From a virus (taxonomy: Duplodnaviria; Heunggongvirae; Uroviricota; Caudoviricetes), in the IMG/VR virus record IMGVR_UViG_3300045988_157791: 64,000 bases of DNA. One strand, given 5' to 3'. The translations under genes and the position numbers were made by a program. Positions 7,611-64,000 of this stretch are shown in pieces. The notes below the pieces were generated by a model. That model was given only the letters and a program-made list of their open reading frames with translations, made no database searches and was not told the DNA's origin. Each line of letters starts with the position of its first letter. Positions within the stretch are counted from its first letter, which is position 1.

Positions 7611-9644
7611 TTACTTAACCTGGTGGCCAGGTTTAGCACCAGCATCCGGGCTTAACAGGAAGATATCTTTCCCGCCGGGGCCAGCAGCCATCACCATGCC
7701 TTCAGAGATACCGAAGCGCATTTTACGTGGTGCCAGGTTAGCCACCATAATGGTGTGACGACCAATCAGTGCCTGCGGATCCGGGTAGGCAGAACGAATA
7801 CCGGAGAAGACATTGCGTTTTTCACCGCCGAGATCCAGTGTCAGGCGCAGCAGTTTGTCAGAACCTTCAACAAACTCTGCGTTTTCGATCAGCGCTACGC
7901 GCAGGTCAACTTTGGCGAAGTCGTCAAAGGTGATGGTTTCCTGAATCGGATCATCTGCCAGTGGGCCAGTAACTGGCGCGGCAGCTGCTTTCACTTCTTC
8001 TTTAGACGCTTCCACCAGTGCTTCAACCTGCTTCATATCGATGCGGTTATACAGTGCCTTGAACGGATTTACTTTATGGCCCAGCAGCGGTTGCTGGATA
8101 CCATCCCAGGTCAGTTCTGTATTCAGGAATGCTTCTGCACGTTCAGTCAGTTTCGGCAGTACCGGCTTCAGGTACGTCATCAGCACGCGGAACAGGTTAA
8201 TGCCCATAGAGCAAATCGCCTGCAGATCGGCATCGCGTCCTTCCTGCTTCGCCACCACCCACGGAGCCTGTTCATCGACATAGCGGTTAGCCAGGTCAGC
8301 CAGTGCCATGATTTCACGGATAGCTTTACCAAATTCGCGGCTTTCCCACGCTTCACCAATCACTTCAGCGGCATCAGTGAAGGTTTTGTACAACTGCGGG
8401 TCAGCCAGCTCGCTTGCCAGCACACCGTCAAAACGCTTATTGATAAAGCCAGCGTTACGGGACGCCAGGTTAACCACTTTGTTCACGATATCGGCATTCA
8501 CACGCTGAACGAAATCCTCCAGGTTGAGATCGATATCATCAATGCGCGAAGAGAGTTTCGCAGTGTAGTAGTAACGCAGGCTGTCAGCGTCAAAATGATT
8601 CAGCCAGGTGCTGGCTTTAATAAAGGTGCCGCGAGACTTGGACATCTTCGCGCCGTTCACCGTCACATAGCCATGAACAAACAGGTTGGTCGGCTTGCGG
8701 AAGTTGCTGCCTTCCAGCATGGCAGGCCAGAACAGGCTGTGGAAGTAAACGATATCTTTACCGATGAAGTGGTACAGCTCGGCGGTGGAGTCTTTCTTCC
8801 AGTATTCATCGAAGCTTACGCTGTCGCCGCGCTTGTCGCACAGATTCTTGAAAGAACCCATGTAGCCAATCGGTGCGTCCAGCCAGACGTAGAAATATTT
8901 GCCCGGCGCGTTCGGAATTTCAAAACCGAAGTAAGGGGCGTCGCGGGAGATATCCCACTGTTGCAGGCCAGATTCAAACCACTCCTGCATTTTATTTGCC
9001 ACCTGCTCCTGCAACGCACCGCTGCGGGTCCATGCCTGCAACATTTCGCTGAAAGAGGGCAGATCAAAGAAGAAGTGTTCAGAATCACGCATTACCGGCG
9101 TAGCACCAGAAACCACCGATTTCGGTTCAATCAGTTCAGTCGGGCTGTAGGTCGCGCCGCAGACTTCACAGTTATCGCCGTATTGATCTGGCGCTTTACA
9201 TTTCGGGCAGGTGCCTTTCACAAAACGGTCCGGCAGGAACATGCCTTTTTCCGGATCGTACAGCTGAGAGATGGTGCGGTTTTTAATAAAACCGTTTTCT
9301 TTCAGGCGAGAGTAGATAAGTTCTGACAACTGGCGGTTCTCTTCGCTGTGCGTCGAGTGATAGTTGTCATAGCTGATGTTAAAGCCTGCGAAATCAGTCT
9401 GATGTTCCTGACTCATTTCGCCAATCATCTGCTCCGGTGTGATACCAAGCTGCTGAGCTTTAAGCATGATCGGCGTGCCGTGGGCATCGTCGGCGCAGAT
9501 GAAGTTGACCTCGTGGCCGCGCATTCGCTGGTAACGGACCCAGACATCAGCCTGGATGTGCTCCAGCATATGGCCGAGGTGGATTGAGCCGTTAGCGTAC
9601 GGCAGCGCGCACGTCACCAGAATTTTCTTCGCGACTTGGGTCAT
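7611..9644 (-). CDS. metG: methionine--tRNA ligase (677 aa)
   Basis: Start at [26 protein letters not shown] (HIGH-type motif), KMSKS present, zinc knuckles CPKC/CEVC, C-terminal tRNA-binding domain; I recognise it as enterobacterial MetG. Confidence 0.95.
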
Positions 9645-9801
9645 AGTAGGCATTACTTCTTTGTAGTGAAAAGGGGCTTGATAGTAACAAAATGGCCTTA
9701 TGTCTGCCATGTGATAACAGCATTTCTCATAAATGATTAAATGTCGTAGCTGGAGTACACTACAAGGCGACAATTGCGCAAATTAAAATAAAGGAGACGG
9801 G
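9645..9801. promoter_or_regulatory. divergent metG / apbC promoter region
   Basis: 157-bp AT-rich interval between divergent starts. Confidence 0.5.
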
Positions 9802-10902
9802 ATGAGCGAGTCCAAATCGCCGGATGCCCTGAGAGCAATGGTAGCCGGTACGCTGGCTAATTTTCAGCACCCAACCCTGAAACACAACCTGACTACGCTT
9901 AAAGCGTTACACCATGTTGCGTTGATGGATGACACACTGCATGTCGAACTAATCATGCCTTTCGTGTGGAATAAGCCTTTTGAAGACCTGAAAGAGCAAT
10001 GTAGTGGTGATCTGCTCCGTATCACTGGCGCAAAGGCTATTGACTGGAAGCTGTCGTACAACATTGCCACGCTTAAGCGCGTCAAAAACCAACCAGGCAT
10101 TAATGGCGTTAAGAACATTATCGCCGTCAGCTCAGGCAAGGGCGGCGTAGGTAAATCCTCCACGGCGGTAAATCTGGCACTGGCGTTGGCTGCTGAAGGT
10201 GCGAAAGTTGGTATTTTGGATGCCGATATCTATGGTCCATCAATTCCAACCATGCTGGGCGCGGAAAACCAACGTCCAACCTCACCGGACGGTACTCACA
10301 TGGCACCTATCATGTCTCATGGCCTGGCAACCAACTCTATTGGTTATCTGGTCACCGACGACAATGCAATGGTGTGGCGTGGACCGATGGCCAGCAAGGC
10401 GCTGATGCAGATGTTGCAGGAAACTCTATGGCCTGATCTGGACTATCTCGTTCTCGATATGCCGCCGGGCACTGGTGATATTCAGTTGACGCTGGCGCAG
10501 AACATTCCTGTAACTGGTGCGGTTGTGGTAACTACGCCGCAAGACATCGCGCTGATCGATGCGAAGAAAGGCATTGTGATGTTCGAAAAAGTCGAAGTGC
10601 CGGTACTGGGTATCGTCGAAAACATGAGTGTGCATATTTGCAGTAACTGCGGTCATCACGAGCCAATTTTTGGCACCGGTGGCGCACAGAAACTGGCCGA
10701 GAAATACAACACGCAGTTGTTAGGCCAAATGCCACTTCATATCTCTCTTCGTGAAGATCTGGATAACGGAACACCAACCGTTATTAGTCGTCCAGATAGC
10801 GAATTTACGGCTATTTATCGTGACCTCGCAGATCGCGTTGCTGCCCAAATGTATTGGCAAGGTGAAGTAATACCTGGCGAAATCGCATTCCGCGCAGTGT
10901 GA
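9802..10902 (+). CDS. apbC: Fe-S cluster carrier ATPase Mrp/ApbC (366 aa)
   Basis: P-loop SSGKGGVGKSS and CSNCGHH motif; Mrp/NBP35 family; divergent from metG as I recall for enterobacterial chromosomes. Confidence 0.9.
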   Translation: MSESKSPDALRAMVAGTLANFQHPTLKHNLTTLKALHHVALMDDTLHVELIMPFVWNKPFEDLKEQCSGDLLRITGAKAIDWKLSYNIATLKRVKNQPGINGVKNIIAVSSGKGGVGKSSTAVNLALALAAEGAKVGILDADIYGPSIPTMLGAENQRPTSPDGTHMAPIMSHGLATNSIGYLVTDDNAMVWRGPMASKALMQMLQETLWPDLDYLVLDMPPGTGDIQLTLAQNIPVTGAVVVTTPQDIALIDAKKGIVMFEKVEVPVLGIVENMSVHICSNCGHHEPIFGTGGAQKLAEKYNTQLLGQMPLHISLREDLDNGTPTVISRPDSEFTAIYRDLADRVAAQMYWQGEVIPGEIAFRAV

Positions 10903-40077: not shown

Positions 40078-40290
40078 TTAGTGTATTTTCTTCAACAGAC
40101 CCCAAAGTGTTCCGGCTTTTGTAGTCAGTTTTCCTGTTTCTGGATCGTACATACGCCATTCACGCCGCTGGTGGACGATATACCCATCTTCACGTTCCAG
40201 ACGCTCAAGAATGCCAGGCTGCTTGAAACCCTTAGCACGCCAGTAGCCGCTTGTTTTCTCGATTTCCAGACCTGCCAGTGTTAATGCCAT
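40078..40290 (-). CDS. hypothetical protein (70 aa)
   Basis: ORF. Confidence 0.4.
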   Translation of the reverse strand: MALTLAGLEIEKTSGYWRAKGFKQPGILERLEREDGYIVHQRREWRMYDPETGKLTTKAGTLWGLLKKIH

Positions 40291-40625
40291 TATCCAACCT
40301 CCTTGCAGTCATCGAAAAGGTAGCTTTGCTGAGAAGCGTGAACGCCATAGAAGCCCTTGTATTTGTTGTATACGAAGTGGTCTTCTCCGACGCCGGTTAA
40401 TTTGCCATTACGATTTGTGAGATATGGGGATGACAACACTCGATCGTCACGCACAACATAGAACTGGTCGCCGCTGTCTACGACCATCGCTCCATATGGT
40501 GCTTTTATGACGTCGGTAAGAGCGCCATTCTTAACGTCGGCTACAGACATTTCACACTGATAAACAGTGGTGTCGGCCACAACGATCGAAGAAAGGAACA
40601 ACAGCGCGAATAGGATGGCCTTCAT
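40290..40625 (-). CDS. secreted hypothetical protein (signal peptide, 111 aa)
   Basis: N-terminal MKAILFALLFLSSIVVA signal-like segment. Confidence 0.45.
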   Translation of the reverse strand: MKAILFALLFLSSIVVADTTVYQCEMSVADVKNGALTDVIKAPYGAMVVDSGDQFYVVRDDRVLSSPYLTNRNGKLTGVGEDHFVYNKYKGFYGVHASQQSYLFDDCKEVG

Positions 40626-40800
40626 GCTGCCACCTCTTTGATTACATCAAATGCTGAATTAAATACGAGCACGATAGCCAAAGCGTTTATGACTACGTCG
40701 TGCACCGGGGAAAAGACTTTACGAATGACACCAGTGAAAATGCAGTCGATGACAAAAGCTATTGAAACGATGAGTAACAAGTATTCAATAAAAATCTTCA
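40622..40800 (-). CDS. small membrane protein (58 aa, not in the ORF track)
   Basis: ATG at 40798-40800, two hydrophobic helices, stop overlaps the next gene's ATG. Confidence 0.35.
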
Positions 40801-40840
40801 TGATAGGTAGATACTAACTTATATAAATTTTACTGTAAAC

Positions 40841-41171: not shown

Positions 41172-41597
41172 TCAATCTTCTTGTTTAGGGAAAAACTGTT
41201 CAATAACTCTGTCAACGGCTGTGTCTATATGGAGTAGATGCCACACAACCATATCTTTGCTTCCCATGCCTTGTGTGAATATCACGTCATACTTACGCCA
41301 TGCGCAGTGGAACCAATATGCTGAGTCATCAATTGGTAAATCCTCTCCCGCCTCTTTGAAGTATTTCAGCAGCATTGCCTGCTCTGCCGTTGGCGTTGGA
41401 CCTATTTCCTGAGCGTACATACGGATGAATCGCTGCCAGTCTGTCTCGTCGGGGGTTGGATCTGGTGGGGTCATTTCTGCGATAGCGTTTCGTAGCTGAT
41501 GCGCCCAATCAGGTTCAGGAAAGCCTTTTGCTACTTCATCATCAATAACATCCAGAGCCACGTTTGCGGCATCGTAGAGTTTCTTAATAGCTGTCAT
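41172..41597 (-). CDS. hypothetical protein (141 aa)
   Basis: ORF; motif copy i upstream. Confidence 0.45.
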   Translation of the reverse strand: MTAIKKLYDAANVALDVIDDEVAKGFPEPDWAHQLRNAIAEMTPPDPTPDETDWQRFIRMYAQEIGPTPTAEQAMLLKYFKEAGEDLPIDDSAYWFHCAWRKYDVIFTQGMGSKDMVVWHLLHIDTAVDRVIEQFFPKQED

Positions 41598-41651: not shown

Positions 41652-41672
41652 AAGGCGTCCAACTGGACGCCT
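41652..41672 (-). terminator. rho-independent terminator (GGCGTCC...GGACGCC family)
   Basis: Hairpin followed by a U-run on the minus strand, 3' of the SPFH gene. Confidence 0.6.
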
Positions 41673-41688: not shown

Positions 41689-42519
41689 TTATTTCACTGT
41701 AATGAAAGGAGTGTTAGCCCCTTGAGTCATGTACTGCGGTAACTGGCCATTCCATTTATTGATGGCTTCCAGTTCCATAACGTTCGGGTTTTGACGCAGA
41801 GCTTCACCGCGCAGACGAATGGCGTCTGCTTCTGCTTGCGCACGAGCACGGATAGCATCAGCTTCACCATTAGCCTGTTCACGTAGCATATTCGCCTCAG
41901 CTTTACGTTGTTCAACTTCCTGCTGACGTTGCAGAGTACGCTGGTTAGCCGTTACTTTGGCGTTAATAGATTCAATGACAGTTTTTGGGTAATCAGGCTT
42001 TCCAACCCATGACAGGCTCAGTACCTCAATACCAACCGGAGACATCTCTTTCTGAATATCTTTCAGTGCGTTGTCCAGCAATTGTGCCTTACCACCGTCG
42101 ATAAATGAGTCAGTGGTCATACGGCTGGCCAAACGGTTTAGAGAGTCGGCAATTTTCTGACGCAGATCTGATTCGGTGATATCGTCTACGCCTTTGCGAT
42201 AGGTCTGGAACACCGTCGTTACCTTGTCACGATTAACCAGATACGCAACGCCAATTTTGTGACCAATAGCAGTACCGTCACTCATCTGGAATGTGAACGG
42301 CTCGTCGTAGGTCTTCATTTGTTTGAAGGTCGGGAATACGTAAAGTTCGGTGTTAAGACCTGTCCATTGGCGACCAACGCCAACCACTTCACCAATCCCT
42401 TTGTCTTCACCTAATTTGTTTACTTTGATGCCAACGTATCCAGGCTCCACGCGATCACAGCCAGTAAGACCCATTGTGCAAATAGCCGCCAGAGCAACTG
42501 CAAGTAAACCTTTCTTCAT
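41689..42519 (-). CDS. SPFH/band-7 (prohibitin/HflC-like) lipoprotein
   Basis: Lipobox LTGC; SPFH-like core followed by an Ala/Glu/Arg/Gln-rich coiled coil. Confidence 0.6.
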   Translation of the reverse strand: MKKGLLAVALAAICTMGLTGCDRVEPGYVGIKVNKLGEDKGIGEVVGVGRQWTGLNTELYVFPTFKQMKTYDEPFTFQMSDGTAIGHKIGVAYLVNRDKVTTVFQTYRKGVDDITESDLRQKIADSLNRLASRMTTDSFIDGGKAQLLDNALKDIQKEMSPVGIEVLSLSWVGKPDYPKTVIESINAKVTANQRTLQRQQEVEQRKAEANMLREQANGEADAIRARAQAEADAIRLRGEALRQNPNVMELEAINKWNGQLPQYMTQGANTPFITVK

Positions 42520-42522
42520 TAC

Positions 42523-42723
42523 TTATTTCCCCTTTGCTTTGATTAATGAGTTGATAAACTTACGACCAGCAATAAGACCGATTACAGGAGCACCAAAACC
42601 AACGATAACTCCAAACATGACGGCTAAATCACTCTTGGTAGAAATCAGCGACGGAACCAGTAAACCGTAGATGAGAGCCACTGAAAGGCCTGTGGCTACT
42701 GCCAATAGATAGATTTTGATCAT
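42523..42723 (-). CDS. small membrane protein (66 aa), likely co-transcribed with the SPFH gene
   Basis: Two hydrophobic helices; 3-nt gap to the downstream gene. Confidence 0.45.
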   Translation of the reverse strand: MIKIYLLAVATGLSVALIYGLLVPSLISTKSDLAVMFGVIVGFGAPVIGLIAGRKFINSLIKAKGK

Positions 42724-42789
42724 GTGTTTTCCTATGTGGTTGTTATGCGAAAATAATAAGTAAGTACTTATATATTTTCAAGAGATAAA

Positions 42790-42814
42790 CAAGGCGTCCT
42801 GTGGACGCCTTGTG
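42790..42814 (-). terminator. rho-independent terminator (GGCGTCC...GGACGCC family)
   Basis: CAAGGCGTCCtgtGGACGCCTTG followed by a U-rich tract on the minus strand. Confidence 0.6.
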
Positions 42815-42815
42815 T

Positions 42816-43889
42816 TTACTCTTCTACTGACTCGGTGGGGTTGTCTTTTGCTCTTCGGTCGTCGATTGCCTGCAAAGCCGCAATGATTTCAGCCAGTGGC
42901 TTCTCCCGATACATCTCAACGATCTGCGATTTGGTGTATTTCTTGTCACCAATTTCAACTCGCCCGCTGGCGTTCTTTGGCAGGTATCCTTCTTCCAGCA
43001 TGTACTCGACGAGCGATTCGATAACGTCGAGGCCACGAGTAGGATCGAAGTAGAATTTCCAGGTGCATTTGCCATACGGTGGTGCAACTTTGTTTTTGAT
43101 GCATTCTGCGCCTACGTCCTGGCCGATCTTCTCTTTACCATCCTTCATCACCGATGCACCAAGACGGATACGTACAGAAGCGTAGAACTTCGGTGAATCT
43201 CCACCTGGCGACGTAGTAGGGTCGCCAAACATTACACCGATTTTTGTGCGAACCTGATTCAAGAAGATGATGCAGGCGTTGTATTTGCGTGCCCACAAAG
43301 CCAGAGTAGGGAAGTTCGCACTCGTCGCACGAGCCAGTGCCGTATTGTCGTTCATGTTTAGCTGATCTTTGTCTTTGGCAGTGCCTTCAGCCATCTTTTC
43401 GAACTTCTCGGCTTTGGAGTTCGGAACCATAGACGCAAGAGAGTCAGCCACGATACAGATAGGTGCTGATTCGGGGATAAGCTCTTCATCACGAACCAAT
43501 TTAAGTATTGTGCCGATCAACTCTACAGAGTCTTCGAAGGTATCTGGCTGCTTGTATACCCACTGACCGTCATCCTCATCTGCGTTCAGGCCATTGGCTA
43601 CAGCCAGGCCAACGTCAAAACTGTTTTCATGATCGAGGAATACCGCCAGACCATCTTGTTTTTGAGCGGAGATCATCGCTGCTGTTGCAAGGAACGTTTT
43701 CCCTGCACTTGGAGGACCGAATACTTCGACGATACGACCACATGGGAAGCCGCCATCGTAACGACCAGAAATAGCTTTGTTTAACGGTGGAAAGCCTGTA
43801 TCAATCCAATGAGTTACTTTCTGAATTTCGTCGTTGCTACCGATTTTCTTTTTCAGAGCAAGTGCCAGTGCGGATTTTCCTTTTGCCAT
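42816..43889 (-). CDS. RecA/UvsX-like recombinase
   Basis: Walker A GRIVEVFGPPSAGKTFLA in a RecA-like N-terminal context. Confidence 0.7.
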   Translation of the reverse strand: MAKGKSALALALKKKIGSNDEIQKVTHWIDTGFPPLNKAISGRYDGGFPCGRIVEVFGPPSAGKTFLATAAMISAQKQDGLAVFLDHENSFDVGLAVANGLNADEDDGQWVYKQPDTFEDSVELIGTILKLVRDEELIPESAPICIVADSLASMVPNSKAEKFEKMAEGTAKDKDQLNMNDNTALARATSANFPTLALWARKYNACIIFLNQVRTKIGVMFGDPTTSPGGDSPKFYASVRIRLGASVMKDGKEKIGQDVGAECIKNKVAPPYGKCTWKFYFDPTRGLDVIESLVEYMLEEGYLPKNASGRVEIGDKKYTKSQIVEMYREKPLAEIIAALQAIDDRRAKDNPTESVEE

Positions 43890-57877: not shown

Positions 57878-58050
57878 ATGACAATCACCGAGTTACGCCG
57901 ATGCACTGTATAAGTAAACAGTATATTAGGCATAGATTCTTATAGGATCAAGAGTAAAAGTAACTCATTTTCAGCAATGATTCCATACATAGTAGGTATG
58001 GAATCATTTAAGGGAGGAATTTAAATTCTGAGGCGTTATTAATATGATTG

Positions 58051-58461
58051 TTAAGGGTTAGTGAGAGCTTGAAATGCGGCCGCGTAGGTAGCGATATCGA
58101 CCATAATTTTTGGATCTTTCGCGTGCTGATGTGCGTTGTTAGGGAAGATTGCCAATAGGCTATACACATCTTGGAAATGTGCATGTTGACTGTAAACGAG
58201 TGCACGGTCGCTTGTGCAATTGAATCTGCTGCGGCTGCTGGTTCGTTCTTGCTTCGTGAACAAGAGATGAACGTGATAGACGCGGGAGGACACGATAGCA
58301 CCAGGAGCCGTATACGGGCCATCTTTGCCGAATATGGCTGGGTACATGCCTTGTTTAAACGACTTGAAATCGTTGAGTAACGTAATCTCTAAGTCAGGCT
58401 TTATATCGAAGGTCGGCTTTAAAAATTGGGCGTAACTATCACTGTTCCATGTGATCTTCAT
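58051..58461 (-). CDS. YafO-family toxin-like protein
   Basis: Aligns with E. coli YafO as I recall it (DF.S.K, FG.D, H.HL, LVY, LLAI..P..H, AEAF spacing). Confidence 0.55.
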   Translation of the reverse strand: MKITWNSDSYAQFLKPTFDIKPDLEITLLNDFKSFKQGMYPAIFGKDGPYTAPGAIVSSRVYHVHLLFTKQERTSSRSRFNCTSDRALVYSQHAHFQDVYSLLAIFPNNAHQHAKDPKIMVDIATYAAAFQALTNP

Positions 58462-58470
58462 CGTTCAACC

Positions 58471-59079
58471 TCAATGGAATGAGAAGTTGGCGAAGACGTC
58501 CTCATCAATGAGGCCAGTCTGCGATTCGATGACGTCTACGTCGTTAAAACACTGATTTAAAATCAATAGCAGATCAGAGATAGCTAAACGATACTCAGTT
58601 ACAGAATCGCTCAAGCGTTTCAAATATGGATGAGGTTGCTCAGAGTCGCGAATCAACTTGTTAACGAATCCCTCCAAACCACGAATGGTCAGGTCAACGT
58701 TCTTCAGTTCTTCGTAACGACTTTCACCGAAGTTGCTGCGAATCTTTTCCGCTTTCCATCCAGAGATGGCATGGGCTAAGCGAACGTGTTTCGCCGTCAA
58801 TTCTGCGAGCTTGCTTTCAATCTTTGCCAGCTGTGCCGCATCGCGGTTTTCTTGAACAGGAATAGCCGCAGTGCTCACATAGGTTTGTGTTTTGAATCCT
58901 GTGAATTTCGCAGAGGGCTTCATCGTGCCACGGAAGCGTCGATATCCACGCGGTTCAATAAAATCACGCCCAGATTTAGCTGTAGGCTTTGCGTTTGAAA
59001 AGCGTGAAGCGTTAGAGGTCACAGTAGCAAGGGCATTGCTAATGACACTCATATCTTCTAGGCAATTTTCTAAACGCAT
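58471..59079 (-). CDS. hypothetical protein, candidate non-canonical partner of the YafO-like toxin (202 aa)
   Basis: Ends 10 nt before the YafO-like start; no YefM/Phd-like features. Confidence 0.45.
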   Translation of the reverse strand: MRLENCLEDMSVISNALATVTSNASRFSNAKPTAKSGRDFIEPRGYRRFRGTMKPSAKFTGFKTQTYVSTAAIPVQENRDAAQLAKIESKLAELTAKHVRLAHAISGWKAEKIRSNFGESRYEELKNVDLTIRGLEGFVNKLIRDSEQPHPYLKRLSDSVTEYRLAISDLLLILNQCFNDVDVIESQTGLIDEDVFANFSFH

Positions 59080-59174
59080 AAAACCTCTTAACTACTCAAT
59101 GGCTCGTAACTAAGTGTACGCTGTGCTGATGAAAGCTACAAATAATAAATGGCCCCAAAAGGAGCCGTATTGTA

Positions 59175-59420
59175 TTACAGAGTGCTCGCAAAAGCAGCAA
59201 ATTCTGTGTATCCGCCAATCGGCTGGCCATCGATCAGCACTTGGGGGATAGTCTCTACCGGTTTACCAACAATTTCACTAAGTTTTTCCTTGTCGATACC
59301 GGCAGTGGTGATGTCGATGTACTCATAATCACTGTAGCCATGTCCCTTTAGTTGCTTCGCCAGCTCGACCGCACGTTTGCAGTATGAGCAGTTATCTCGT
59401 CCGTAGATAGTGATCGTCAT
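59175..59420 (-). CDS. glutaredoxin-like protein
   Basis: Thioredoxin-fold redox motif CSYC near the N-terminus, 81 aa. Confidence 0.7.
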   Translation of the reverse strand: MTITIYGRDNCSYCKRAVELAKQLKGHGYSDYEYIDITTAGIDKEKLSEIVGKPVETIPQVLIDGQPIGGYTEFAAFASTL

Positions 59421-59593
59421 AACTTAACAAATACCTTTATAAATATTGATTCGAACATATCAGACTATACTACAAACAGATTTTTTTGATAAGTATGTAG
59501 TAACTTATTGGTTAACTAGTAAACAATTGAAGTGATTACGACAATAGATTACAGTAAGGATTGCCTTGAAATGTACATTTTATAGAGGTTTTA

Positions 59594-60502
59594 ATGATTG
59601 GTAAGTTGTCTGATTCTTTGATTGAAAATAAATACAACGAATTTAGAGAAGAAATATCTTTACTTTTTGACTATTTAAATCAGATAAATGATACAACAAA
59701 GAAAAATATAAAACGTCTTCTTAAAGAAGTGGAGTATGCACAGAATCCAGATACTATTATTAATATTAATGAAACTATTAAGATTAAGTGTGGCACAACA
59801 TTAGCTCGCCATTTATGTTCAAACCCATATACAGGTTCAACATTAGAGATAGGTAACAGCGCCATTGATTTAGAAGAAAAGATAAGATTGTGTAATACTT
59901 TGAAAAATAAACAATATCAGTGGGTTATTACTGAAGCCTATGAGTTACTGGAAGACTATATTGAGGCAATATATGTCTATACTGTATGTGTTCGAAATGA
60001 TTTATGGTCCTCAAGTGATTTTGGTAAGGTTGAAGATGATGAAATTGGGAAAAGGGAAGTTTATTACAGATTATTAAAAGCAAAAAGTAACCCATCGAAA
60101 AAAATAACTAAAATTTTCAGAAATAAAATACCTGGCTTCAAAGAGATAGAAACAAACAACAAGATTGGCAAAAACTATCGCTTTAACATCAAGCTAATTG
60201 AACTACTAAGACATACAATAGTACATAATGGTGGACGATTCAACAACACAGAAAAATTTATAACTAAGGTCTTGGATGAATCTGAAATAAGCGGAAAAAA
60301 AAGAGTTATTGGAGAAAGAGTTGTTAGAAACTACATTGCTAAAGTACAAGAAGATGATATTGTAATGCTATTAGAAAGACCATCAGAAATTTTAGGTTCT
60401 TTTGGTTGGCATTTCAATAGAGCAAAATATTTACTAAGTGATATTTTAGAATACTCACTAATCATTAAAGAAGAACTAATATCATATCTAGATAATTATT
60501 AA
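59594..60502 (+). CDS. AT-rich hypothetical protein with an R-x4-H (HEPN-like) motif; possible abortive-infection protein
   Basis: About 30% GC gene in a 48-50% GC backbone; motif ELLRHTIVHNGG. Confidence 0.4.
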   Translation: MIGKLSDSLIENKYNEFREEISLLFDYLNQINDTTKKNIKRLLKEVEYAQNPDTIININETIKIKCGTTLARHLCSNPYTGSTLEIGNSAIDLEEKIRLCNTLKNKQYQWVITEAYELLEDYIEAIYVYTVCVRNDLWSSSDFGKVEDDEIGKREVYYRLLKAKSNPSKKITKIFRNKIPGFKEIETNNKIGKNYRFNIKLIELLRHTIVHNGGRFNNTEKFITKVLDESEISGKKRVIGERVVRNYIAKVQEDDIVMLLERPSEILGSFGWHFNRAKYLLSDILEYSLIIKEELISYLDNY

Positions 60503-60921
60503 TTAAAAGGGCAGAAGCTCCTTTGGTTATTGCGTTGGAAACTATATCATTACAATAATAAACGATGTTTTCAACGCATAAAACATCAGTGAATAAATTG
60601 ATGCTTGCTGTAACGATGGTACGCTACGTAATATCCGAGATTTATGAGGCTGATTACAGATAAGGACTTACATAGCACACAAAAACGTTGCGACTTATAA
60701 GAATATCTGCTGATATCAGACGCAACGTATGTTTTATATCAAATTATTACTTTATAGTAATAAACAATATTAAGTTGAAAAGCCATCATCAGCGGCAACC
60801 TTATTATGAACTTCAGCTAAATACTCAGCTGCCGCTATTTGTTGCTCTGCAAAAGAAGCGCCATGAGCTTCCATTGAACCAGCATAAAGCATTAGAGAAT
60901 GATGTAAATCTTTATTAAGCA

Positions 60922-61611
60922 TTATACGAGATAACACAATACTGGCACACCATTGCGTTCGGCTAATTTATTAACGCTGTAAAGAAACTCAACGACTTTG
61001 TCCTTATTCCCTGCCCACGATGGCAGCCGACCATTTCCAGAGGCGACATCCTTCGCTGAATGAATCTTATTCGCATGATGCATTCTGGTTTTAGCCTTAA
61101 TGTATCCCTGAAAGAACAGAAAGGCGATATACGCAATAATTGATATGCCTTTTGTTGGCCACGCAAAAAACAAAGCAGGAAAAAAGAGAAGAGTAGTTAT
61201 CATACCAATTTTTAGTGAAAGTTGAGCAATAATAAAAAGTATAAGCGCAATCCCGAGAGTCCACATAGTGAAAGGTACACCTTCAGTCTCTCCATTCAAG
61301 ATATACACACTATCGTCCATAGCTGCAAGGTGAACATATAAGAACACAACAGGGGTGATAAATGTTCGCACCTCTTTAAATCGTGTAATCATCTTGGCAA
61401 TCCAGTAAGCTAAAAGAACACTGGCAAATGACTCTGCAAGGATTTCGGCAACTATCGTGGATGTAACTTCAATAAAAATAAACGACAAGAGAAGATACAG
61501 GGTAATACAGTATCCAAAGTATATTGATTTATTGAATAGAATTTTCTTCACAAAAATTCCTGGTGAAAGAATCATTAATCGAAAATTATATAACAATCTA
61601 ATAACCTCCAA
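60922..61611 (-). CDS. multi-pass membrane protein (AT-rich)
   Basis: Several hydrophobic helices; low GC. Confidence 0.5.
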   Translation of the reverse strand: MEVIRLLYNFRLMILSPGIFVKKILFNKSIYFGYCITLYLLLSFIFIEVTSTIVAEILAESFASVLLAYWIAKMITRFKEVRTFITPVVFLYVHLAAMDDSVYILNGETEGVPFTMWTLGIALILFIIAQLSLKIGMITTLLFFPALFFAWPTKGISIIAYIAFLFFQGYIKAKTRMHHANKIHSAKDVASGNGRLPSWAGNKDKVVEFLYSVNKLAERNGVPVLCYLV

Positions 61612-61833
61612 ATTGTATCAACACAGTACGCTTCACCTCGCTGCTAGGCTGCAACTAGGAATAATCTCATTGTAAATCAAATGTAAAAATCCTTAAAGAT
61701 TCTTTTTAATTTGATTAAAATATGTCCTTGATAAACGGAAATTTCCTATACCTAAATGGAACACACTATATGCACGGATTAGTAATTGTAAGAAAATAAA
61801 CAATAATCAATGATGTTTTCATAAGGAAAGAAT

Positions 61834-62733
61834 ATGAACAAGGCCAGAAACCACCATTACCTTTCTCAATGCTATTTAAGAGGATTTACGAAAAATGGAG
61901 GGGTTAAATCAAATATAATAGCTTTTGATTTGAAGAAAAAAACAACTTTTGAGGCAAAGCCTCGAAATGTTGGCGGTATAAGAGATTTTAACAGAATAGA
62001 TATTGAGGGAGTCGATCAAAATATCCTTGAAAGTACATTGGCAAATTTCGAGGGTAATGTTGCAACTGAACTTAAAAACTTAAAACAGGGTATGCCTTTC
62101 TCTGGTCAAACTAAGGATATAATCCTTTCTTTCATTTCGTTACTGGCCGTCAGAACACCAGCTATGCGTGATCACATGGAATCACAAATAGTTAAAATGG
62201 TAGATATGGTCGCGAAAATGACAGCTTCAGATGAAGACAGATACAACGATACTATTCGAGAAGCTGCTTTTACTGTTGATGTATCATTTGAAAAGATAAA
62301 AAACTTTATTGGAGGCAGTCAATACTCTATTTCTGTCAAGCGTGAGTTTCTTATCGCTGCTGAAATGAAAATATCTCGAGCCATTGACAATGCACTTCAT
62401 TGTCGCGACTGGCGTCTCTTCCGTTCTACAGAAGAATCAGGAACTTTCATAACTTCAGATAATCCAGTAGGTCTGATGTGGACAGATGAAAGTGACGGAT
62501 CACCTGGTTTTTTGGTTGAAAATACATGTGTTCTTTTCCCTATATCCAAAGATATTATTTTGTTTGGAGACTACGGTGGTAGAACTGGTGAACATTATGC
62601 GAACAAAAATATAGCTTCACATTTTAATGCATGTGTCATTTCTAATGCAGTAGAAAGAGTATTTTCTGCAGATCGAACATTTAATTACATTAACGTAGAT
62701 GGTGTAATTAAGCAGGGAAATAACCTCGTGTAA
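61834..62733 (+). CDS. DUF4238-like protein (candidate single-gene antiphage protein)
   Basis: N-terminal HHYLSQCYLRGF resembles the HHY..Q.YL+.F signature I recall for DUF4238; low GC. Confidence 0.5.
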   Translation: MNKARNHHYLSQCYLRGFTKNGGVKSNIIAFDLKKKTTFEAKPRNVGGIRDFNRIDIEGVDQNILESTLANFEGNVATELKNLKQGMPFSGQTKDIILSFISLLAVRTPAMRDHMESQIVKMVDMVAKMTASDEDRYNDTIREAAFTVDVSFEKIKNFIGGSQYSISVKREFLIAAEMKISRAIDNALHCRDWRLFRSTEESGTFITSDNPVGLMWTDESDGSPGFLVENTCVLFPISKDIILFGDYGGRTGEHYANKNIASHFNACVISNAVERVFSADRTFNYINVDGVIKQGNNLV

Positions 62734-62764
62734 AAGTTTGATAGGGGCATATACGCCCCTATCA

Positions 62765-63319
62765 TTATTTTATTTTATCTTCTTCTAAACGAGAAAATTT
62801 AAATTGTTTATCGGTGATGGTGAGTAGTGTTACACCTTCCTTTTCGTGTAAAAAACCGGCACCGTTTGACACCATAATCAATCTATCCTTCCCTCGAAAG
62901 ATTTCATAATATTTACCACCTCCACAAGTTTTAGTTTCAATACAGTCCATGCCAGATACTGCTTCTCTGTTAAAAATACGATCTTTTGTAGCAACGGGTT
63001 TTCCGTACTCCTTTGTCAGCATTTCACTTATCTGGATGAATGTATACTTACCAACATTACTGGTTAATGACATTTCGACTTTTCCGTCGATCAGATTGCC
63101 ATTCGTATGCGGTTCTTTTTCAGTCGGGGTATTTTTATCTTGAAGAACAAACACTTCAACATTTTGTGTTAGCTTCTTGAATTGGGCTTTATAATTTTGT
63201 TCAAGTTCACTTTTATCTTTGCCTATTAACGTTAATTCATCTATTTCAGATTCGTTACACCCTGTTAGCGTTAACGCAATTATTAGAGATGCGAAAATAT
63301 TGAGATGGCACTTCTTCAT
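62765..63319 (-). CDS. lipoprotein (AT-rich, 184 aa)
   Basis: Signal peptide with lipobox LTGC. Confidence 0.5.
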   Translation of the reverse strand: MKKCHLNIFASLIIALTLTGCNESEIDELTLIGKDKSELEQNYKAQFKKLTQNVEVFVLQDKNTPTEKEPHTNGNLIDGKVEMSLTSNVGKYTFIQISEMLTKEYGKPVATKDRIFNREAVSGMDCIETKTCGGGKYYEIFRGKDRLIMVSNGAGFLHEKEGVTLLTITDKQFKFSRLEEDKIK

Positions 63320-63437
63320 TAATTTGTCTCCATGTTTAACTGCTGCGATCTAATCAGGAACATGAAGGCAGTCTAACGCTGCCTCTGATCAAAGCGATAA
63401 AACGATACGTGAATATAACTAAGTGTCAACAAAACAA

Positions 63438-63462
63438 AAAAGGGGCCGAAGCCCCTTTGAAT
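63438..63462. terminator. bidirectional hairpin terminator
   Basis: AGGGGCcgaaGCCCCT flanked by A-run and T-run. Confidence 0.6.
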
Positions 63463-63532
63463 TTTGCGCTGAAAAAAGTGTTGCTAGGATGTTAGCAAGC
63501 TATGGTTAAGAACGTCTGCCGTAATTGTCTAT

Positions 63533-63610
63533 CACAGCGTTGAGCGGTCTGGTTTATGTTAGCGGAGTCTTAATCTGGTTGATTAAAAGGCCAAACCGCT
63601 CAACGCTGTG
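63533..63610. other. perfect 16-bp inverted repeat enclosing a 46-nt loop, abutting the 3' end of tRNA-Ser
   Basis: CACAGCGTTGAGCGGT ... ACCGCTCAACGCTGTG. Confidence 0.5.
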
Positions 63611-63612
63611 TC

Positions 63613-63699
63613 TGGCGGAGAGTAATGGAATCGAACCATCATCGCTTGCGCAATGGGACGGTTTTCAAGACCGCTTGAGCACCATGCTCCCTACTCTCC
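63613..63699 (-). tRNA. tRNA-Ser (anticodon UGA), class II with long variable arm
   Basis: Folded by hand: 7-bp acceptor GGAGAGT/ACTCTCC, anticodon loop CUUGAAA, variable arm CATTGC-GCAA-GCGATG, T-loop GGTTCGATTCC, 3' GCCA; D-arm atypical. Confidence 0.6.
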
Positions 63700-63923
63700 G
63701 GCCGTTGTGGTGGCCGGTACTGAATCTCCGGCATACGGTGCAGCCAATTAGGACTACGGACGATCACCGCTCGCGAAAGGGAAGATTTGCGGCCGCATTT
63801 CCCTAACATCCAAGAAAGCTATCGCATCAGTCTGCGAATCCACCACAACGGTAAGATCACTACCTTTCGACCAGTCATTGTGCACATGAACGACGATTAA
63901 CCGTAATGATCTTATCGTTGTAT

Positions 63924-63999
63924 TGGTGCCGGTTAGCGGACTCGAACCGCTGACATCCTGCTTACAAGGCAGGCGCTCTACCAACTGAGCTAAACCGGC
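63924..63999 (-). tRNA. tRNA-Thr (anticodon UGU)
   Basis: Folded by hand: acceptor GCCGGTT/AACCGGC, D-arm GCTCAGTTGGTAGAGC, anticodon loop CUUGUAA, T-arm AGCGGTTCGAGTCCGCT, discriminator A plus CCA. Confidence 0.7.
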
Positions 64000-64000
64000 A

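Follow-up and report, generated by a model that had tools for sequence, protein, structure and literature searches.

An accessory cassette of an SPFH lipoprotein and a two-helix membrane protein in an SSU5-like phage-plasmid, with a promoter palindrome shared by DNA-metabolism genes

Why should a phage encode an SPFH protein of its own? SPFH proteins (stomatin, prohibitin and flotillin, along with HflK/C) are universal membrane scaffolds whose roles in bacteria are poorly defined, and the phage version is one half of a fixed two-gene module, the other half being a small membrane partner of its own. We approached this question through one such locus in the IMG/VR virus record IMGVR_UViG_3300045988_157791, of which a stretch of 64,000 nucleotides (nt; hereafter the window) was analyzed. 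An earlier note on this DNA had described an SPFH lipoprotein with a co-transcribed 66-residue membrane protein and had offered membrane integrity, superinfection exclusion or abortive infection as possible roles. Our analysis indicates that the pair is probably an accessory two-gene envelope cassette, switched on together with DNA-metabolism genes and not in quiet lysogeny; what it then does is argued more tentatively below. The parts of the cassette, in the order of transcription, are the following.

42789..42813, minus strand: hairpin A, terminator-like, with an 11-bp stem holding 7 GC pairs; it follows the recA/uvsX-like gene and marks the upstream cassette edge.
42753..42781, minus strand: sigma-70-type promoter TTGAAA-17-TATTAT, matching 10 of 12 consensus positions, the best match in 39.5-46.5 kb.
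42756..42771, no strand: perfect 16-bp palindrome ATAAGTAcTTACTTAT (ATAAGTA-NN-TACTTAT), which overlaps the spacer of the promoter and the beginning of its -10 element.
42523..42723, minus strand: gene for the 66-residue two-helix inner-membrane partner (PHROG 1130), with an AGGA ribosome-binding site at 42730-42733.
41689..42519, minus strand: gene for the 276-residue SPFH/Band-7 lipoprotein, assigned from Pfam, PHROG, AlphaFold (AF2), Foldseek and the family alignment.
41653..41672, minus strand: hairpin B, an intrinsic terminator with an 8-bp stem holding 6 GC pairs and then TTTTTTAT, 16 nt past the stop codon; it marks the downstream edge.

The larger gene encodes an SPFH lipoprotein, as the earlier note had proposed. 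Its product matches the Pfam Band_7 profile PF01145 with 106.2 bits (cutoff 23.6; E = 2.6e-30) over residues 23-209 and profile positions 2-176 of 176, and the PHROG 200 ‘lipoprotein’ hidden Markov model (HMM) over its full length (E = 3e-108). Read by eye, the signal sequence is MKKG-LLAVALAAICTMG-LTGC and the N-terminus as a whole MKKGLLAVALAAICTMGLTG-C-DR, with a basic n-region, a hydrophobic h-region and the lipobox L-T-G-C at residues 18-21, which places the lipidated Cys at position 21 and Asp22 at +2. A lipobox-like motif precedes the Cys in 72 of 77 unique family members, and in 42 of these 77 ‘DR’ follows the Cys directly (CDRV in the present sequence). The AF2 model (predicted local distance difference test, pLDDT, 79.6) has a signal helix, an SPFH core (about residues 23-176) that starts 3-4 residues past the lipidated Cys, and a 65-residue helix at 179-243, with strands at 20-95, helices at 97-162 and a further strand at 164-176; beyond the long helix come a further, short one and a C-terminal tail of low confidence, and it is this tail that bears the most conserved motif in the family alignment, KWNGxLP...PF. 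As modeled, the lipoprotein has the full cage-type architecture of SPFH core and long helix. Foldseek placed erlin1/2, HflK/C, prohibitin, stomatin and then flotillin at the top (probability 1.00, E down to 6e-13), with QmcA-YbbJ (QmcA at rank 38) and major vault protein among the further matches, and HflK was the only sequence-level match in the PDB. The description ‘HflC-like’ given in the earlier note therefore holds at the level of the superfamily and not of orthology, which we rejected: the protein scores 30.2 bits against TIGR01932 (HflC; cutoff 134.4), 18.7 against TIGR01933 (HflK; cutoff 159.4) and 16.8 against NF008259 (cutoff 427), carries a signal peptide with a lipobox in place of an N-terminal transmembrane (TM) anchor, and is the product of a lone SPFH gene rather than of an hflK-hflC pair. 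The labels ‘serine protease’ and ‘transposase’ borne by some homologues were likewise rejected, since Pfam and fold searches of the present protein show neither domain.

The smaller gene encodes two hydrophobic helices and a basic C-terminal tail, with no soluble domain, and its product matches the PHROG 1130 family ‘membrane protein’ (E = 2.1e-25). By the positive-inside rule its topology is predicted to be N-in/C-in, which would put the loop VPSLISTKSD in the periplasm; the loop motif (L/V)-x-P-x-(L/M)-(I/V)-S-x-x-(S/D), together with a Pro in TM2, is conserved across phyla. We regard this open reading frame as a real gene because a homologue holds the same position in 129 of 171 diverse related loci, always upstream and on the same strand where it was found; in 120 of these loci the distance is within 40 nt. 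These counts come from a locally iterated HMM run on fetched loci, by which the distant partners were found; word-indexed and exhaustive single-sequence searches with the 66-residue query returned close relatives only (32 and 8 matches). Several Caulobacter loci that the HMM counted as negative nevertheless hold recognizable partner variants, and among close viral loci the partner is present in 82 of 82. Two known classes of small membrane protein were considered for it. An NfeD assignment was rejected: PF01957 gave no match at E ≤ 1 among 25 diverse partner sequences, a profile search gave no related PDB chain at E ≤ 10, YbbJ of 8z5g included, and the protein has only 66 residues. No Pfam family was matched by it either. 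For a class II holin the topology is compatible, but the neighbors are recombination genes, and no Pfam holin family matched significantly (best E = 0.12, in 3 of the 25 sequences).

Many E. coli plasmids of about 110 kb match the locus region at 99.9% identity, and the phages CMS-2020a, PhiR41_1 and Cyrano are 94-99% identical to it; for Cyrano, a phage-plasmid of E. coli LF82 that was classed as SSU5-like (PMC9928086), the figure here is 93.9%. These matches identify the carrier as an SSU5-like E. coli phage-plasmid, in agreement with the view of the carrier as a phage-plasmid taken in the earlier note. The same locus occurs on Yersinia plasmids (62 records by DNA search, 63 by protein search) and on some Salmonella plasmids. 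On the upstream side the pair is flanked by genes for a RecA/UvsX-like recombinase, a 5′-3′ exonuclease and a gp32-like single-stranded DNA-binding protein (SSB), and on the downstream side by a DUF7238 gene and several small open reading frames that have no assigned role, with a Rep3-type repA about 2 kb beyond. The placement ‘between replication genes’ can thus be refined: recombination genes stand on one side and small open reading frames of no assigned role on the other, with repA 2 kb further off.

Within these flanks the cassette has clean boundaries. On the minus strand the genes meet at TAA-GTA-ATG, a gap of 3 nt, and the GGGGA Shine-Dalgarno sequence of the SPFH gene sits within the 3′ end of the partner gene, an arrangement that indicates translational coupling and co-transcription, the latter as previously suggested. 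Hairpin B has a T6 tail, and the two hairpins share a GGCGTCC...GGACGCC stem that occurs nowhere else in the window (0 expected). In a Klebsiella SSU5-like plasmid that lacks the cassette, one such hairpin joins both flanks: the sequence before it aligns to 42835..42793 of the window and the sequence after it to the DUF7238 gene at 41585..41491. The flanks of this empty site were placed by local alignments, a global MAFFT alignment having misplaced one of them. Since a single hairpin stands between the same two flanks, the unit of promoter, two genes and hairpin is a clean insertion/deletion polymorphism, and twin hairpins against a single one at the empty site suggest that recombination at the hairpin brought about its gain or loss. 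Among Klebsiella plasmids the gp32-like marker finds 347 records and the SPFH protein only 56, as against 63 and 63 in Yersinia. The pair is accessory and lineage-variable, not core; to the alternative that it might be a universally conserved morphogenetic pair, the answer is that most Klebsiella SSU5-like plasmids do without it and that unrelated phage backbones carry it.

The cassette promoter appears to belong to a wider set. Searching the window with the pattern ATARGTANNTACYTAT (ATARGTA-NN-TACYTAT) and allowing up to 2 mismatches gave 14 sites against 0.41 expected, and 0 of 100 shuffles gave more than 3; the perfect palindrome is found at the cassette promoter only.

3764, 15577, 20552, 22108, 22771, 27606, 27744, 32323, 37007, 40803, 42756, 46280, 46745 and 53689: 16-bp palindrome sites with up to 2 mismatches.

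At the ten inspected sites with a nearby gene start, the palindrome lies within about 120 nt upstream of a minus-strand gene, and the genes so preceded include those for ribonucleotide reductase, SbcD and the gp32-like SSB as well as a small open reading frame at 40801. In the SSB promoter the palindrome occupies the same spacer position as in the cassette promoter, making two such promoters in all. Nearly all SSU5-type relatives keep the -35 element, the palindrome and the -10 element at position -48 relative to the ATG, and this conservation extends to the Kluyvera/Yersinia pestis type despite diverged flanks. The palindrome probably serves, as operator or as promoter element, a regulon of early and DNA-metabolism genes that spans the whole element.

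Published expression data for Cyrano bear on when the pair is made. The values, given as log2, are those of Table S1 of PMC9928086 for E. coli LF82, with the conditions read from the column names BLB, B1, B6, MB1 and MB6. The partner gene, CYRAN_56, stands at the floor value of 2.32/2.32 in LB and at 7.61/7.70 after 6 h in macrophages, and the SPFH gene, CYRAN_57, at 4.30/3.02 and 7.25/7.42 (PMC9928086). Overnight culture in LB thus leaves the pair at the detection floor or close to it, and in macrophages at 6 h it is about 10-40-fold up. In the same 6-h sample the flanking genes are at 4.06/4.05 (RecA) and 4.2/3.94 (CYRAN_58) (PMC9928086); that the pair rises while both neighbors stay near 4 supports an independent transcription unit. 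Another group, CYRAN_60-62, is co-induced, from 2.3-3.8 in LB to 8.3-9.0 in macrophages (PMC9928086), and has its homologues in the window downstream of the palindrome site at 40803.

40622..40801, minus strand: homologue of a CYRAN_60-62 gene, encoding a 59-residue hydrophobic protein.
40290..40625, minus strand: homologue of a CYRAN_60-62 gene.
40078..40290, minus strand: homologue of a CYRAN_60-62 gene, annotated ‘P1 Cra’.

The rise of the pair in LF82 at 6 h occurs without detectable production of Cyrano virions, and some capsid and tail genes of Cyrano rise in that sample too (PMC9928086), so that stress induction and partial derepression of a subpopulation are both possible sources of the macrophage signal. 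In having its own promoter and terminator and in being variably present among related phages, the cassette resembles a moron; expression from the repressed prophage, also typical of morons, is at or near the floor in the LB lysogen, and CYRAN_56/57 are absent from the moron list of the Cyrano authors (PMC9928086). Taken together, the silence in the LB lysogen and the palindrome shared with DNA-metabolism genes argue against a constitutive prophage defense or exclusion system and for a role after derepression.

Beyond this element, the pair is an old and mobile module, conserved and widespread among phages. Relatives of the SPFH protein were found in 413 phage records. Of the 5,426 complete E. 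coli genomes, 737 contain the family, its copies being divided about evenly between chromosomes and plasmids; phage-plasmids of pandemic lineages, among them Yersinia pestis pMT1 and Salmonella pHCM2-type plasmids, carry it too. In the homologous phage pairs (N4-like, P88, P1-like, 4MG and ProddE) the SPFH protein is 37-79% identical to ours, and the two PHROG families, the gene order and the coupling are the same; what differs is the backbone and the regulation, which in each is its own. Over 77 unique pairs the divergence of the partner correlates with that of the SPFH protein (r = 0.79, Mantel p ≤ 0.001), and it is the partner that evolves faster, about twofold (mean identity 28% vs 54%). 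Temperate carriers include the P2-like phage P88 (gp11/gp12) and P1-like phage-plasmids; in phiP27 (L05) and Stx2 phages the SPFH gene lies in the int-xis-proximal region, annotated ‘serine protease’, and no small upstream gene is annotated. Strictly lytic carriers include the N4-like Shigella phage Moo19 (gp30/gp31, annotated as similar to N4 gp19/gp20), the rV5-like 4MG (gp235/gp233), the LUZ24-like TL, phiCbK, FelixO1-like Erwinia phages, a Burkholderia phage, a Vibrio phage in which the family gene adjoins DNA polymerase, and the T7-like Desulfovibrio phage ProddE, in which gp009/gp010 lie between DNA polymerase and exonuclease. The majority of these temperate and lytic carriers have a gene for a small two-helix protein directly before the SPFH gene. 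In the P1-like Ro157c2YLVW the pair (gp85/gp84; L084 3184-4228) sits between tRNA genes and tRNA-Met/ban, and in classical P1 this slot (L083 3189-3894) holds tciA-tciB-tciC, annotated ‘tellurite or colicin resistance’; the pair and tciABC are alternative cargo at one locus. It follows that essentiality data from CRISPR interference in P1 do not apply to the pair. The classical P1 genes ‘plp/upl’ are not supported as its named homologues.

The family reaches well beyond these phages. A scan with one genome per species found it in Enterobacterales, Sutterella, Pseudomonas, Xanthomonadales, Leptospira, Bacteroidales, Caulobacterales, Sphingomonadales, cyanobacteria and Acidobacteria, with some copies in prophages and others in contexts that do not look viral. 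In Leptospira (L116), Saprospirales (L114) and Xenorhabdus (L104) the module stands beside genes for an EAL-domain protein, HMG-CoA reductase, a major facilitator superfamily (MFS) transporter and FlhA, ordinary cellular genes, and is therefore not strictly viral. One protein cluster (P0021; 347 residues, 8 member sequences) is an in-frame fusion of a P1-type partner to the SPFH lipoprotein across a 20-nt overlap, which would be topologically feasible only with the C-terminus of the partner in the cytoplasm and could be a frameshift or sequencing artifact.

Several known systems resemble the pair in part. With the HflK/HflC cage (PDB 7vhq, 7wi3, 9cz2) it shares the SPFH1/2 core, the long coiled-coil helix, a C-terminal cap segment, an N-terminal membrane anchor and a bulk predicted to be periplasmic; it differs in its lipid anchor, its single SPFH gene and its 66-residue operon partner, and the identity is only 15-18%. 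In the SPFH-NfeD pairs (QmcA-YbbJ, 8z5g; YqiK-YqiJ; PH1511-PH1510) an SPFH gene is likewise in an operon with a small multi-helix inner-membrane protein, and in QmcA-YbbJ the partner sits with the cage, a logic to which the one proposed here is analogous, not homologous: the present partner has no NfeD/OB domain, and QmcA faces the cytoplasm whereas the present lipoprotein must be periplasmic. T4 Imm and Sp, T5 Llp and phi80/T1 Cor are early superinfection-exclusion proteins of the envelope, small inner-membrane proteins and/or lipoproteins, and dispensable. The analogy to these is functional only, with no kinship of sequence or fold, and they target a specific receptor or entry step, unlike the present family, which occurs in phages of many phyla. 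A last comparison is with PM0222 (Pmorf0222), an HflK/C-like SPFH virulence factor of about 25-35 kDa from a Pasteurella multocida prophage (PMC9872710), a possible relative of the family. Its TLR1/2 agonism would fit a triacylated lipoprotein, and it differs in being found in outer-membrane vesicles and expressed in culture (PMC9872710).

These elements can be joined into a mechanism. The Asp at +2 and the absence of a linker would hold the SPFH core on the periplasmic side of the inner membrane, at its outer leaflet, in the orientation of HflK/C, prohibitin and erlin. The lipoprotein would homo-oligomerize into a dome that encloses the partner by way of its conserved periplasmic loop, and the resulting phage-built microdomain of the inner membrane would keep the membrane sealed throughout the lytic program, shutting out insults such as DNA entry by superinfecting phages, colicin-type damage or premature depolarization. 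The role would then be one of protection or exclusion by early genes, in the manner of T4 Imm/Sp. That strictly lytic phages have such pairs in their early or replication blocks is consistent with a role in lytic growth, and this lytic-block position, the replacement of tciABC in P1-like phages and the fast-evolving partner are supporting hints for a protective one. While we consider the architecture and regulation of the cassette probable, the full account, with a protective or exclusion function during lytic growth, is one to which we would give somewhat less than an even chance. It is possible, if doubtful, that the pair represents an undescribed class of SPFH system: a lipid-anchored, periplasm-facing cage with a dedicated non-NfeD two-helix client, deployed early by lytic and temperate phages of many phyla for remodeling or sealing the inner membrane, for instance in blocking rival genomes or timing lysis, and placed in this element under a repressor/operator regulon.

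A number of observations weigh against the protective account. That the family is conserved in groups as far apart as Desulfovibrio, Leptospira, Bacteroidales, Caulobacter and enterics, and that there are chromosomal copies that do not look phage-borne, argues for a generic membrane role and not for one in shutting out particular phages. The LUZ24-like and FelixO1-like lineages have no two-helix partner. Retention in the inner membrane is inferred from the E. coli +2 rule alone, and the Arg at +3 may weaken it; elsewhere in the family the +2 residue is Ser, Gly, Glu or Asn. The Pasteurella prophage SPFH protein, a possible relative, occurs in outer-membrane vesicles (PMC9872710). The fused protein P0021, considered as a proxy for the complex, was dropped after a single-sequence AF2 model proved uninformative (pLDDT 49). 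In the literature up to 2026 we found no experimental work on any family member. As to known defense systems, a search of PADLOC-DB v2 at E ≤ 0.01 returned 0 defense families for both proteins, and on the five neighbors PADLOC gave nothing beyond one chance-level Cas5 match on another open reading frame.

Other explanations have to be set against this one. The pair might modulate FtsH by mimicking HflK/C, its cage capturing or shielding FtsH, or shielding phage membrane proteins from it, and so altering the stability of CII-like regulators or membrane proteins. The best structural matches are indeed exoplasm-facing cages tied to membrane proteolysis, namely HflK/C-FtsH (7vhq, 9cz2, 7wi3), prohibitin and erlin; HflK is the sole PDB match at the level of sequence, the weak NCBIfam matches are to HflC and HflK, the universal presence of FtsH in bacteria would account for the very wide spread of the family across hosts, and the authors describing the Burkholderia phage CSP3 have speculated along similar lines. 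However, the HflC and HflK equivalog scores lie far under their cutoffs (30 vs 134 and 19 vs 159 bits), there is no N-terminal TM anchor and one SPFH gene instead of a K/C pair, the dedicated co-evolving partner suggests a client encoded by the phage itself, and members of the family are common among strictly lytic phages, which make no lysogeny decision. We regard this explanation as unlikely. The partner could also be the active component, a holin-like 66-residue pore former that the SPFH cage holds inactive until another phage or envelope stress frees it and the membrane is depolarized, in the service of abortive infection or of killing competitors. Its class-II-holin-like build (about 65 residues, two TM helices, a basic C-tail), the tight coupling and co-inheritance of the two genes and their accessory, mobile spread in prophages, phage-plasmids and chromosomal islets would all suit such a caged toxin, and abortive infection was among the proposals of the earlier note. 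Yet neither protein matches a PADLOC model, no Pfam holin match is significant, the LB lysogen, in which a defense system would be expected to be on, keeps the pair silent, the pair is widespread in the early or replication blocks of strictly virulent phages, and the lysis cassette lies elsewhere (CYRAN_22-25 in Cyrano), which leaves a caged toxin quite improbable.

We give similarly little credence to a role in lysogenic conversion or virulence, in which the lipoprotein would be made under host-associated stress and act at the surface or in vesicles, as a TLR1/2 agonist or in envelope stress tolerance, to the benefit of the bacterium. The moron-like anatomy, with own promoter, terminator and variable presence, speaks for it, as does the rise of the LF82 pair in macrophages at 6 h in the absence of detectable Cyrano virions; the P. 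multocida prophage protein PM0222, found in outer-membrane vesicles, activates TLR1/2 and contributes to virulence in mice (PMC9872710). But that protein is only a possible homologue, the promoter palindrome is common to promoters of DNA-metabolism genes, the macrophage sample also shows a rise of capsid and tail genes, so that the signal may reflect partial derepression in a subpopulation, and the family abounds in strictly lytic phages, for which there is no lysogen to convert.

Part of this was already on record. Database entries name these proteins ‘SPFH domain-containing protein’, ‘lipoprotein’ or ‘serine protease’, and PHROG families exist for both. Our literature search found no paper giving a function to phage SPFH proteins or describing the conserved partnership, only speculation; a 2026 paper states that why a phage should have an SPFH gene ‘remains unclear’, and one match to ‘band 7’ was dismissed, a gel band being meant. 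What is added here are the cassette boundaries, an operator-bearing promoter that is probably tied to an element-wide regulon, published data placing the pair off in lysogeny, and its recognition as a widespread conserved two-gene module. With a compact 1.1-kb cassette, clean edges, a defined promoter and putative operator, and natural relatives that lack the cassette, the question of its function is directly testable. Should the module exclude phages or stabilize infected cells, this would matter for phage therapy, for the ecology of phage-plasmids, which spread resistance genes, and for SPFH cages generally.

Some other features of the element were noted in passing. The RecA/UvsX-like recombinase gene at 42816..43889 (minus strand) encodes 357 residues and is intein-free here, its Cyrano counterpart having 779 residues; many near-identical plasmids annotate the gene at this position as ‘LAGLIDADG family homing endonuclease’, and PHROG 9666 (779 positions) matches the product via its C-terminal part only. 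From these lengths and matches it looks like a presence/absence polymorphism of an intein. A host-like metG (methionyl-tRNA synthetase; 7611..9773, minus strand) and apbC/mrp (9802..10902, plus strand) have a raised GC content of 0.50 and occur together on about 200 related plasmids as well. The region 58000-64000 has a low GC content (0.33-0.40) and several open reading frames without a Pfam match, and could be an accessory or defense island; one of its open reading frames, 61834..62733 on the plus strand, encodes a DUF4238 protein (E = 2e-40).

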